From Minisyncoccota bacterium (GTDB lineage: Bacteria > Patescibacteriota > Minisyncoccia > Phycocordibacterales > UBA9973): 64,000 nt of DNA. The position numbers and the translations under genes are program-made. A model generated the notes under the pieces. The model searched no databases. It was not told the DNA's origin and saw only the letters and a list, made by a program, of their open reading frames with translations. Shown one piece after another: positions 43,116 through 45,393 of this stretch (the stretch's first letter is position 1; each line of letters opens with the position of its first letter). Where the stretch lies: assembly GCA_041674285.1 (NCBI GenBank), contig JBAYVZ010000005.1:5176-69175 (forward strand). Direction: 5' to 3'.

Positions 43116-43583
43116 CTATATTGTATCGTTTCCAATGTACTTTATAACGACTTTTCTATCTGGACCAAATCCAGTAGATTCAGTGGTCACATCTTTTGCA
43201 TTCTCTAAAAACATGTGAATTATACGTCTCTCTGAAGCTGGCATAGGATCTACCTCTATATTACTCTTGAAATATCGAGCACGTTCTGCGAGCATGTATG
43301 CAGTAGCCTTTAAATTATCGAATCTTTTCTTCTGATAACCATTGATATCTACAAATAGGGCAGAGGTGGCTTCCTCTGTGTGATTCTTTTCAGAAAGCTT
43401 ACGGACAAGATGGTTCAAAGACCGGAGAGTATCTCCCTCACGGCCAATAAGGAATCTCGAGTCTGGAGTATTTATGGCTACCCATGTCATACCTGCGTCT
43501 TCGGTGATCTCACAACCAGAAAGAGTACATCCTGTGTGTGTAAATATCTCTTCAACAATTTTTTTAATAGAATCTTTATCCAT
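43116..43583 (-). CDS. jag: Jag/KhpB (KH + R3H RNA-binding protein)
   Basis: KH GREGDTLRSLNHLV; R3H MPASERRIIHMFL; conserved position after yidC. Confidence 0.7.
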   Translation of the reverse strand: MDKDSIKKIVEEIFTHTGCTLSGCEITEDAGMTWVAINTPDSRFLIGREGDTLRSLNHLVRKLSEKNHTEEATSALFVDINGYQKKRFDNLKATAYMLAERARYFKSNIEVDPMPASERRIIHMFLENAKDVTTESTGFGPDRKVVIKYIGNDTI

Positions 43584-43705
43584 CCCGTATGAAATAGGAA
43601 ATGTTTACATTTCCGTATTTAATTATATTATCATTAATAATACCGACTAAGTTTATTTTGTAAAATCCGTATAAATATTATATACACATTTCATACGGGA
43701 TCCAT
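43581..43705 (-). repeat. A-element copy A8 (TIR variant CCCGTATGAAAT / ATTTCATACGGG) between yidC and jag
   Basis: On the minus strand: ATGGA-TCCCGTATGAAAT ... GGAAATGT-aaac-ACATTTCC-t-ATTTCATACGGG-ATGGA. Direct repeat ATGGA. Confidence 0.85.
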
Positions 43706-43715
43706 ATACGTTTAA

Positions 43716-44459
43716 TTAGAAGTTATTTTCTTTTTTGGCTATTTGGTCTCTTACGTACCATTCCTGACCTATAGTGAATATATTACTCACAATCCAATAT
43801 AATGCAACCCCTGCAGAGAAAGTATAAGCGATAAATGCAACAAACACTGGCAATACGTAGCGAATATTTAACTGCATACTACTTGCCAATTCTTCTTGAA
43901 AAGTCTTTTTGGTATTATCTGATACAACCTCTACGTCTTTGATGGTCTTCTTTGGAGTAGCTAGGTATGCCTGGAAATATTGAGAAACACCTGCCAATAG
44001 AGCTAGGAATATGCTGTGATTCAAAGAAAGATCAAATAATCCCAAGAAATTTGTATTCATGACAACCGGTACATTGATAAAACTATAAATGATACTACTG
44101 TCTATCTTGAAATTGATAAATACATAGTACAGGGCAAATATAACAGGAAGCTGAAGTAAAACAACAAGGCAACCAGAGAATGGGTTTACTCCGTATTTCT
44201 TATACAATTCAAATTGTTTTTTTGCTTGCTCTTCTTTATTTGGATAATCAGTCTTCAATTTCTTGAGTTCTGGCTCAAGCTTTTTCATATAAATCTGACT
44301 CTGTATAGACTTCTTGGCAAGAGGGAAGAGGATGAGTTTTACGAGTATAGTCAAAATAATAATAGCAAAACCAATATCCCCAAAAGTAACCTTATCTATT
44401 AAAAAAACCAGCATATTATATATAGGCTGATAAAAAAATGTATTCCATAGTGCGCTCAT
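43716..44459 (-). CDS. yidC: Membrane protein insertase YidC/Oxa1 (short form)
   Basis: 247 aa; KLILFPLAKKS and the family hydrophobic core. Confidence 0.85.
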   Translation of the reverse strand: MSALWNTFFYQPIYNMLVFLIDKVTFGDIGFAIIILTILVKLILFPLAKKSIQSQIYMKKLEPELKKLKTDYPNKEEQAKKQFELYKKYGVNPFSGCLVVLLQLPVIFALYYVFINFKIDSSIIYSFINVPVVMNTNFLGLFDLSLNHSIFLALLAGVSQYFQAYLATPKKTIKDVEVVSDNTKKTFQEELASSMQLNIRYVLPVFVAFIAYTFSAGVALYWIVSNIFTIGQEWYVRDQIAKKENNF

Positions 44460-44492
44460 CCGTCTATTGTAGCATAAAATTTAAGTATTTTT

Positions 44493-44597
44493 AATTCCCC
44501 TCTTGAGGGGTGCCCGATAGGGTGGGGTGGATATATTTTGTATTAAATTCAGTCCACCCCGTCTTTTGAGTACAAAAGCCACCCCTCAAGAGGGGAA
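44493..44597. repeat. C-repeat locus 1: two inverted GC-rich units (CCACCCC ... CTTTTGAGTACAAAAG ... CCACCCCTCAAGAGGGGAAT)
   Basis: The units at 44493-44530 and 44553-44597 are reverse complements around an AT-rich spacer. Between yidD and yidC. Confidence 0.65.
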
Positions 44598-44600
44598 TAA

Positions 44601-44807
44601 CTACCTCACAGGATCGTAGCTATGTTTTTGCCATGGGTGACATCGGAGCACGCGCCAAACAGACAAATAAAAACCTTTAAAAAATCCATATTTTTCAAAG
44701 GCTTGTTTACTATACTCTGAACAAGTCGGTAGAAATTTACAAGAATAGTGCGATTTTAAAGGAGTTTTTTGATATAAGTTTATTAAAAATATAATTATTT
44801 TAGACAT
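44601..44807 (-). CDS. yidD: Membrane protein insertion efficiency factor YidD
   Basis: CKFLPTCSEYSKQAFEKYG...RCHPW...DPV. Confidence 0.8.
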   Translation of the reverse strand: MSKIIIFLINLYQKTPLKSHYSCKFLPTCSEYSKQAFEKYGFFKGFYLSVWRVLRCHPWQKHSYDPVR

Positions 44808-44925
44808 CCCATTAGAGATAGGAAATGCTTACATTTCCGTTTCTTTTTAATTTAAATTAATAAATACAACCTTATTTATAAGCAAACCTACATAAAAAAC
44901 ACAAACAACATATCTCTAACGGGAC
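44805..44925 (-). repeat. A-element copy A9 between rnpA and yidD
   Basis: On the minus strand: GTCCCGTTAGAGAT ... GGAAATGTAAGCATTTCC-t-ATCTCTAATGGG-ATG(yidD). The rnpA TAG stop is the TTAG of the 5' arm. Confidence 0.85.
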
Positions 44926-45251
44926 AAGTATAATCCTGCTTTTTTAAATAAATAGACAATATTTTCAGATATTTGATCATTTTCAGCTTTTAAAGCCTCC
45001 TTTTTAAAGAAAAGAGCGCCGATAAAAGGCTTTGCCAGTAATGGGCCAGCCATACGATAACCCTTTCTCCTGAGAGAATTCCTTAAAACAGCTGTTTTTG
45101 CAACGCTTTTCGGGGCAACTACAGCAAAATGAACCACACCATCAGTGGAGGGTATATACCGGAAAGTAAAAAGAGGGCTTGAGACCATTTTTCCTTCTTT
45201 CATAATGGCTTCAAAAACCCCCTTATTAACACGATGCTTTTTGGAAAGCAT
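44916..45251 (-). CDS. rnpA: Ribonuclease P protein component
   Basis: LRNSLRRKGYR basic motif; follows rpmH. Confidence 0.85.
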   Translation of the reverse strand: MLSKKHRVNKGVFEAIMKEGKMVSSPLFTFRYIPSTDGVVHFAVVAPKSVAKTAVLRNSLRRKGYRMAGPLLAKPFIGALFFKKEALKAENDQISENIVYLFKKAGLYLSR

Positions 45252-45252
45252 G

Positions 45253-45393
45253 TTATTTCTTTATAGATACACTAGCGCGACCTTTTTGGCGTCGGCGGGC
45301 AGTGACCTTTCGGCCATTTTTTGTCTTTGTACGTACAAGAAAACCGTGTGTTTTAGCTCTTTTACGTTTGTTTGGTTGATATGTTTGAGACAT
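45253..45393 (-). CDS. rpmH: 50S ribosomal protein L34
   Basis: [46 protein letters not shown], translated by hand; below the ORF-track length cutoff. Confidence 0.85.

Follow-up and report, generated by a model that had tools for sequence, protein, structure and literature searches.

Repeated elements in the rpmH–jag operon

We examined a 64,000-nt stretch of DNA (the window) from a Minisyncoccota bacterium (assembly GCA_041674285.1, contig JBAYVZ010000005.1, positions 5,176–69,175 of the forward strand), in which two junctions of the operon rpmH-rnpA-yidD-yidC-jag are occupied by copies of a ~117-bp repeat, here called the A-element. These two copies, A9 between rnpA and yidD and A8 between yidC and jag, are among eight in the window. 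On the evidence given below, they are probably non-autonomous derivatives, resembling MITEs (transposable elements of miniature size with inverted repeats), of a selfish DNA element that occurs in multiple phyla. A sequence-only reading of the window had placed the five genes in this order on the minus strand, with the elements inside a conserved operon and overlapping coding sequence at both ends; open reading frames (ORFs), coordinates and Pfam matches (Ribonuclease_P, YidD and R3H/KH Jag) agree with it on each count. The dnaA gene lies on the plus strand at 45516, diverging from the rpmH side. Genes and elements of the operon are as follows (window coordinates).

45253–45393, minus strand: rpmH (L34), an ORF, first in the operon and 100% identical in the sister strain L119
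44916–45251, minus strand: rnpA, an ORF with Pfam Ribonuclease_P at residues 4–105 of 111
44807–44924, minus strand: A9, an ORF-less A-element of 118 bp including its terminal T…A, identified by a covariance-model match of 84 bits and its fold; also in L119
44912–44924, minus strand: 5' terminal inverted repeat of A9, TCCCGTTAGAGAT
44807–44819, minus strand: 3' terminal inverted repeat of A9, ATCTCTAATGGGA, ending in the A with which the yidD ATG begins
44923–44912 and 44819–44808, minus strand: the 12-nt arms of A9, CCCGTTAGAGAT and ATCTCTAATGGG, read from the sequence
44821–44838, minus strand: hairpin P2 of A9, GGAAATG-TAAG-CATTTCC, the relic of a long-range helix that pairs LRKRF codons with LKRFL codons in a GIY-YIG gene
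44601–44807, minus strand: yidD, an ORF with a Pfam YidD match and an N-terminus as in relatives
43716–44459, minus strand: yidC, an ORF, short at 247 amino acids (aa)
43701–43705, minus strand: original jag start upstream of A8, comprising the old A and the upstream TGGA target copy
43583–43700, minus strand: A8, an ORF-less A-element with arms TCCCGTATGAAAT and ATTTCATACGGGA, identified by a covariance-model match of 78.6 bits, its fold and empty sites in relatives
43597–43614, minus strand: hairpin P2 of A8, GGAAATG-TAAA-CATTTCC, predicted by folding
43116–43583, minus strand: jag/khpB, an ORF with Pfam R3H/KH Jag and an N-terminus as in relatives

The rnpA stop codon TAG (44918–44916) is, as had been read, the TTAG of the A9 5' arm: the gene ends TTG TCC CGT TAG, with TCC CGT TAG (S-R-stop) drawn from the flank and the 5' inverted repeat together. 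Comparison with relatives, which the same reading had proposed, indicates that the last RnpA residues were made by the insertion, since relatives end in …ILKKAKII*, about three residues earlier, and the window protein in …LFKKAGLYLSR*, beyond the end of the Pfam domain. The 3' arms had also been credited with supplying the ATGs of yidD (44807–44805) and jag (43583–43581). Both codons do follow directly on the GGG of the arm, but the arm gives the A only, and the TG comes from a duplicated 4-nt target. A8 has a fully compensated arm variant (CCCGTATGAAAT/ATTTCATACGGG). Upstream of it, the old jag ATG opens a mini-ORF, ATG GAT CCC GTA TGA (MDPV*, 43705–43691), whose TGA lies inside the variant 5' arm, and downstream the rebuilt jag ATG consists of the terminal A of A8 (43583) and the downstream target copy TGGA (43582–43579).

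A covariance-model scan with filters off found exactly eight full copies in the 64 kb and one remnant, and a 23-mer spanning hairpin and arm has five matches in the window compared with 0.00 expected. The window copies all fold alike, into a 14–15-bp closing stem (P1) and a 7-bp hairpin (P2) stacked on the 3' strand of P1, with folding z-scores of −3.5 to −5.1. All eight are co-oriented with an ORF of 68–643 aa whose first base directly follows the 3' arm. Besides A9 and A8 they comprise the following.

1780–1897, plus strand: A-element directly before a 167-aa ORF
7936–8055, plus strand: A-element with compensated arms (…AGAAGT/ACTTCT…), directly before a 341-aa ORF
11618–11736, plus strand: A-element with flanks ATGGA T/…/A TGGA C, directly before a 293-aa ORF
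23270–23389, plus strand: A-element directly before a 643-aa ORF judged UvrD/PcrA-like from sequence alone
34703–34822, plus strand: A-element with flanks ATGGA T/…/A TGGA C, directly before a 385-aa ORF
37117–37233, plus strand: A-element of the AGAAGC/GCTTCT arm subfamily with flanks ATGGG T/…/A TGGG A, directly before a 611-aa ORF
15593–15660, minus strand: truncated remnant found by the covariance model, with a 5' arm (CCCGTTAGAAAA) and no matching 3' arm

Full-length copies encode a GIY-YIG protein

In other genomes the same ends are found, for a few arm pairs, 272–283 bp apart, in full-length copies that enclose a co-oriented GIY-YIG ORF of 85–94 aa. Their termini are 13-bp inverted repeats of the form (T/C)CCCGTTAGAGAT … ATCTCTAACGGG(A/G). 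Full-length copies were read at loci L109, L097, L018 and L004, and then at L138, L139, L146, L150–L153 and L156; both ends were readable in 11 copies, all of which carry both arms, with the gene flanked by the repeat on each side. The eleven copies come from seven lineages (Ratteibacteria, Kazan, Giovannoni-, Campbell- and Doudnabacteria, Omnitrophota, Planctomycetota, Elusimicrobiota and Flavobacteriales, together with an unassigned metagenome contig) and include compensated arm variants (AAAGAC/GTCTTT, GAGAC/GTCTC and GAGAA/TTCTC). Nucleotide identity among full-length copies is 58–81% (66–81% leaving out the divergent Kazan copy L097), without phylogenetic order; for comparison, the YidC protein of a distant relative is 34% identical.

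A protein search returned >4,584 homologues, with a typical length of exactly 86 aa and a C-terminus …LKNRLKRFLSLTG. The best 120 of them are 73–91% identical to the query and belong to Omnitrophota, Planctomycetota, Elusimicrobiota, WOR-3, Flavobacteriales and lineages of the Candidate Phyla Radiation (CPR). Pfam GIY-YIG (PF01541) covers residues 1–68 and is the sole domain, NCBIfam gave nothing above cutoff for the 86-aa protein, and weaker or more distant matches were to a PHROG 'homing endonuclease' and, as best relative in the PDB, to UPF0213 BH0048 (1zg2, E = 3.7e-9). The short form thus has a longer partner with shared ends, which encodes no recognised transposase, the GIY-YIG protein being its only product.

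The 3' half of P2 and the 3' arm are codons of this gene (AAG CGT TTC CTA TCT CTA ACG GG, read as K R F L S L T G), and the 5' half of P2 (ACGGAAACGC) encodes L-R-K-R of a conserved NDLRKRF motif; the 5' arm is read as N-terminal PVRD or PVRE in some N-extended gene calls. P2 is present in 10 of the 11 full-length genes as a long-range helix of 11–15 contiguous bp that joins codons ~24–29 with codons ~77–82 and is compensated at synonymous positions (AAA CGC with GCG TTT, AAG CGC with GCG CTT, and AAG CGT with ACG CTT). The longest P2 run in L097 is 8 bp. The hairpin of the short form is what remains of this covarying helix, and the 117-bp A-elements look like MITE-type, ORF-less derivatives that keep both ends and a shortened P2.

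Conserved operon junctions are occupied repeatedly in unrelated phyla. One full-length copy lies exactly between yidC and jag in an Elusimicrobiota metagenome-assembled genome (MAG) (L151:401–661), which is the junction of A8, and another between lepA and lepB in a Planctomycetota MAG (L150:401–661). A third, in L138, is wedged between two genes with ATGA overlaps on both sides.

Distribution and covariation of the short form

The distribution of the short form was scanned in one genome per species, with two exact arms and a gap of 80–110 nt. Exact 12-nt arms (CCCGTTAGAGAT…ATCTCTAACGGG) were found in at least 118 stretches, often several contigs from one MAG, and the element is therefore not private to this genome. 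The lineages include Patescibacteria (Paceibacterota, Saccharibacteria, Nomura-, Wolfe-, Kaiser- and Yanofskybacteria, and Kazan), Omnitrophota, Planctomycetota, Elusimicrobia, Ratteibacteria and Ignavibacteria. Sizes cluster tightly, with 133 of 156 arm pairs in the 100–149-nt bin. Within a subfamily, short-copy interiors at different loci, in the window and in related Paceibacterota and Nomurabacteria MAGs, share 50–71% identity; the background median is 33%. This indicates that the ORF-less form multiplied as such.

Sixty-nine copies were aligned. Their arms are nearly invariant, with helix 1 paired at 98.8% and compensated variants present, and their ~75-nt interior is unconserved (median pairwise identity 33%). 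Across the 69 elements, paired cells amount to 97.6% compared with 85.7% in shuffles, and double-change cells number 158 compared with 48. In P2, six of seven pairs covary, both sides having changed in 18–27 of the 69 sequences at five pairs and in 7 at the sixth. Wobble pairs in P2 (10 sense-strand G·U, 4 A·C) are not decisive between RNA and DNA, and single mismatches in P1 fall on the CpG of the arms and go both ways, a count that the search pattern biases. Rfam has no family for the element, either at gathering thresholds over the whole window or in E-value mode over the operon and seven full-length loci.

Head-to-tail tandem elements occur at L100:3370–3616, where a 6-nt spacer (…CTAACGGG GTTCAC CCCGTTAG…) gives a perfect palindromic junction of ~30 bp. 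Some database proteins (P0001, P0003 and P0005) read through a tandem junction, with tails such as …LTGFTPFRD and …LTGLTPLEM. Such a tandem could be a transposition intermediate or the product of insertion beside an existing copy. A phage vector was also considered and rejected: despite the spread of the nuclease genes across phyla, neither the short-form nor the long-form arm pattern has a match in 2.9 million viral contigs.

Insertion at start codons

To compare occupied with empty sites, we used 19 relatives of the window YidC recovered from metagenomes. At ~55–65% YidC identity, relatives have rnpA–yidD gaps of 1–30 nt and yidC–jag gaps of ~10–50 nt without an element; the first junction is empty in 12 relatives and the second in 13. 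At the A8 site, …TAT ATGGAT AAG… in empty relatives corresponds to TATA TGGA T–element–A TGGA TAAAG in the window. An independent element with C…G termini and a CCCATTAGAGAT arm lies at the same yidD start in L133, whose occupied sequence …ATATAAAATGAA C–element–G TGAAAAGA can be set against …ATATAAAATGAAAAAATTT in the empty L120 (ATGAA C–element–G TGAAAAG compared with ATGAAAAA). This pair indicates insertion after A|TGAA with duplication of TGAA and rebuilding of a GTG start.

An outermost T…A pair is seen in 57 copies and a C…G pair in 40. An exact duplication of 3–5 nt flanks 39 of the 55 copies that abut an ATG and is 4 nt long in 32 of them (TGAA in 17, TGGA in 10); among C…G copies the figure is 23 of 40 (TTCA in 7, TTTA in 5). 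Direct repeats in the flanks average 3.87 matches out of 6, compared with 3.14±0.07 in within-class shuffles. For the 57 T…A-class copies, all from CPR, with an orientation callable from the hairpin, an ORF of at least 50 aa begins at +1 in 49, and a further 3 have their ORF on the inverted side with the same flank logic.

The comparison of empty with occupied sites and the flank statistics show how the element inserts. Insertion splits a start codon behind its A, 4 bp (3–5 bp) of target such as TGAA or TGGA are duplicated, and the old ATG stays upstream. The terminal A of the element and the duplicated TG then rebuild the host ATG and leave the host protein unchanged. In this operon the start codons of yidD and jag were the targets, with rnpA running into the 5' repeat and stopping at its TAG. 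Coding overlap at both ends is explained by insertion of a mobile element after the start-codon A together with the 4-bp duplication and the terminal A that rebuilds the ATG, and the TAG in the 5' inverted repeat means that an upstream frame can be closed by the element.

In full-length copies the nuclease ORF is opened by the old ATG, as with the old host ATG in L138 and L097, or by an ATG ~9 nt inside the element. Where a T…A-type full-length copy has a duplication starting with TGA, the stop codon of the nuclease (TGA) and the rebuilt ATG overlap as ATGA. We infer that host initiation signals and translational coupling serve both genes. By analogy with Ssn nucleases, the GIY-YIG protein may act as a hairpin-directed nuclease of single-stranded DNA (ssDNA) that recognises P2 and the adjacent repeat, cuts the element ends and drives mobility.

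Transcription and translation signals

No convincing sense-strand terminator was found inside A8 or A9, the sole terminator-like call being the weak P2 hairpin of A8, and an internal promoter search gave 11 promoter-like sites compared with 9.9 expected, which is chance level. Shine-Dalgarno-type GGAG, GAGG or AGGA motifs at −20 to −4 precede 2 of the 44 long ORFs (≥150 aa) of the whole window, and a TATAAT-like box lies 6–10 nt before the ATG in many of its long ORFs. This suggests that initiation in this organism is independent of Shine-Dalgarno pairing and possibly leaderless.

In mRNA, the AUG is predicted to have its A and U hidden in the 14–15-bp P1, which ribosomes could open by terminating within the 5' arm (at the TAG of rnpA in A9, at the TGA of the mini-ORF in A8). 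Coupling through a leader peptide or upstream ORF was rejected as a general property: the frame of the upstream ATG ends in the interior in 34 of 44 copies, and frames that continue to the 3' arm are not enriched. On the antisense (plus) strand, at 43597–43614 and 44821–44838, P2 is followed by a T-rich run (GTATTTAATT and GTTTCTTTTT) and scores as terminator-like; A-elements might block antisense transcription into the operon.

Interpretation and alternatives

Several observations count against an origin of A8 and A9 as derivatives of a mobile GIY-YIG element. A full-length nhmmer profile aligns with the ends of the short copies only, their interior being untraceable to the gene, although homology confined to the ends is what usually links a MITE to its parent. 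No GIY-YIG gene lies within the 64-kb window, and A8 and A9 both recur in L119, at 98% the sole close strain recovered, so that no recent movement of an A-element is seen. Exact duplications are missing at 16 of the 55 ATG-abutting copies. A9 itself has no clean duplication (CTTG upstream, TGTC downstream), and its left boundary is uncertain because the ATACTTGT that precedes it, encoding the YLSR* tail of RnpA, recurs at the remnant at 15593–15660, which is preceded by ATGAAT ATACTTGT. Purifying selection, acting on a densely packed genome, could explain more of the association with start codons than target choice does. GIY-YIG enzymes are hydrolytic and are not known to have strand-transfer chemistry, which leaves the insertion step without a demonstrated catalyst, and all related data come from MAGs and metagenome contigs. 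As a separate observation, other genomes (L024, L075, L007 and many C…G copies) again have ACTTGT/CTTGC upstream of the 5' arm; in one subfamily the element may extend this far.

The earlier reading had taken the coding overlap as an argument for a role at the RNA level, with the terminal stem of a functional module of the polycistronic mRNA serving as an RNase III site that separates the cistrons; in a variant of this view the module would set stability and translation. We consider this unlikely, though a live secondary possibility, above all in a genome so poor in Shine-Dalgarno motifs. Co-orientation with the downstream gene in all eight window copies and in ~93% of CPR copies would fit it, as would a P1 that takes in the A and U of the AUG, the folding z-scores, the scarcity of Shine-Dalgarno motifs, which means that processing to a short leader could matter, and the lack of a strong sense-strand terminator in A8 and A9; Correia elements of Neisseria are reported to be cleaved by RNase III when co-transcribed. 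However, relatives run the same operon with element-free junctions of 1–50 nt, and the conserved parts are accounted for as coding relics and inverted repeats of the nuclease gene, the hairpin and 3' arm among them. The overlap follows from the mode of insertion and does not carry the argument. The interior is unconserved, a few copies are inverted relative to the gene with unchanged flanks, the covariation of the arms is equally expected for DNA-element ends recognised by one protein, the wobble asymmetry in P2 is weak, and Rfam has no match. The predicted stem, at 13–15 bp, is short for a canonical two-turn RNase III substrate, and co-transcription is deduced only from the lack of a strong sense-strand terminator; RNase III cleavage of the stem is possible and is not needed to explain the anatomy. 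What the data do support is that reading's other option, that the elements are tolerated inside the polycistron.

Less probable still is that each 117-bp element is a full-length GIY-YIG insertion that decayed in situ and was never independently mobile. Short and long forms do share both ends and the P2 halves, as well as a similar distance of ~73–78 nt from the 5' arm to P2, and L021 has a truncated GIY-YIG ORF inside a 134-nt copy, but the very uniform sizes of the arm pairs and interiors that are alike across loci and MAGs yet not recognisably gene-like point to amplification of an ORF-less master copy. A recombination site that separates gene cassettes, of the integron attC type or with another tyrosine-recombinase core, is suggested by imperfect palindromes of ~60–140 nt between co-oriented genes, by ends with GTTAGAG/CTCTAAC around a variable centre and by the palindromic junctions of the tandem copies. 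In the attC consensus, R'' (RYYYAAC) lies 5' and R' (GTTRRRY) lies 3'. We rejected this candidate as barely credible, because the core order is inverted (GTTRRR…YYYAAC, as in GTTAGAG … CTCTAAC, instead of RYYYAAC…GTTRRRY), the flanking genes are housekeeping genes in conserved operons, and no integrase lies between the arms, where the sole ORF is the GIY-YIG nuclease.

An origin of A8 and A9 from the mobile GIY-YIG element is to be kept apart from the broader proposal that the element represents a new class of bacterial transposable element. Such an element would have an 86-aa Ssn-type GIY-YIG ssDNA nuclease as sole protein, home to the A|TG of start codons, borrow host initiation signals for the nuclease ORF, rebuild the ATG with its terminal nucleotide and have spread horizontally among CPR, Omnitrophota, Planctomycetota, Elusimicrobiota and other phyla, with thousands of 117-bp ORF-less copies left behind in conserved operons. 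We find this proposal plausible but stop just short of favouring it.

Relation to known systems

Among known systems, Ssn and its NTS/SRM repeats come closest. Ssn nucleases are single-domain GIY-YIG proteins that bind hairpin repeats with an oriented flank and cut ssDNA nearby, and their genes are bracketed by repeats (PMC11893778); the NTS-ssnA-NTS arrangement was noted by its authors as an insertion-sequence-like architecture (Chenal et al. 2025, PMC11893778). The proteins are of similar size (~90 aa, typically 86 aa here), and in both cases the gene is bracketed by a repeat that is also scattered in many intergenic copies and forms a hairpin with a conserved oriented flank. In contrast to Ssn repeats, A-elements have two ends that pair with each other over 13-bp terminal inverted repeats, and a target duplication of 4 bp; both hairpin and 3' repeat fall within the coding sequence of the nuclease, and the short copies are composite units of 117 bp rather than 28-nt hairpins. 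A-elements insert at start codons, and their hosts are CPR, Omnitrophota, Planctomycetota and others. The SRM consensus, HGTCWYN(0-2)YYVSBRHN(0-5)WNVSBRGN(0-2)RNCYNB, matches none of 101 A-elements on either strand.

As ORF-less units of 100–150 bp with terminal inverted repeats, short duplications and many copies, A-elements resemble Correia/NEMIS elements and other MITEs (ERIC, RUP and BOX), which are likewise often co-transcribed with genes and have a terminal stem that gives long double-stranded RNA. They differ in a parent that encodes a GIY-YIG nuclease rather than a DDE transposase, in arms that are nearly identical across phyla and in the exact A|TG position with a rebuilt ATG. REP/BIME repeats and their RAYT (IS200/IS605-like Y1) proteins offer a parallel in extragenic hairpins spread by, and flanking, the gene of a small nuclease specific for ssDNA hairpins, and in their dual nature as domesticated and selfish; RAYTs, however, are HUH/Y1 enzymes with a covalent intermediate, whereas GIY-YIG enzymes are hydrolytic, and REPs have neither terminal inverted repeats with target duplication nor a preference for start codons. 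With the seg genes of T4 and enzymes of the I-TevI type, the element shares the GIY-YIG catalytic domain and the habit of a selfish gene wedged between host genes. Unlike them, its protein, at 86 aa in total, lacks a DNA-binding extension, and the element has defined inverted-repeat ends with target duplication, abundant ORF-less derivatives and many unrelated sites per genome instead of one cognate allele, besides its absence from the viral contigs searched.

A full-text search of the literature found no description of the A-element, and a prior description is possible in the subscription-only papers that it did not cover. Exchange of GIY-YIG genes between Patescibacteria and other groundwater bacteria has been reported (PMC12455944). 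If our interpretation is right, the widespread mini-genes annotated in uncultivated phyla as 'GIY-YIG nuclease family protein' or 'excinuclease ABC subunit C' would be cargo, carried by a mobile element whose ends are defined. With its target duplications and empty sites, the element would then be the first clear case for the idea from the Ssn work of insertion-sequence-like pairs of nuclease and repeat. By landing on a start codon and restoring it, selfish DNA has a route to inhabit the essential, packed operons of reduced genomes harmlessly. Annotation is affected as well, since the elements produce spurious upstream ATGs and mini-ORFs, lengthen C-termini (that of RnpA here) and lead to N-extended nuclease calls. 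Should the nuclease recognise P2 and the arm, the many covarying pairs would form a ready catalogue of ssDNA nuclease specificities.

Other repeats in the window

A palindromic repeat of a family unrelated to A-elements, the C-repeat, lies between yidD and yidC.

44476–44599, no strand assigned: C-repeat palindrome, two inverted units AATTCCCCTCTTGAGGGGTG…CGGGGTGGA

Its presence here is a recent insertion: the 98%-identical strain L119 lacks it and has only 32 nt at this junction, with TAA as the yidD stop rather than TAG as in the window. The repeat also occurs at 51068–51193 and 51763–51830. An arm of the C-repeat followed by TGGCTTTTGT is terminator-like on the sense strand, and its ATTCCCC…GGGGAAT core recalls the dRS3/NTS repeats of Neisseria; its only match in Rfam is a non-significant one to AniS (E = 4.1). 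A tRNA/tmRNA scan found none.

Two segments of ~130 nt at 3313–3446 and 7771–7904, 4,458 nt apart, are 82–94% identical (…TTCGCATATCTTTTCTAGGGTAC…; GCGCCGGTCGCGCTGTAGAAGCCCC…), the second lying just upstream of an A-element copy. Three tandem 60-nt repeats (67–100% identical) at 21824–22003 probably belong to the coding sequence of a large ORF.

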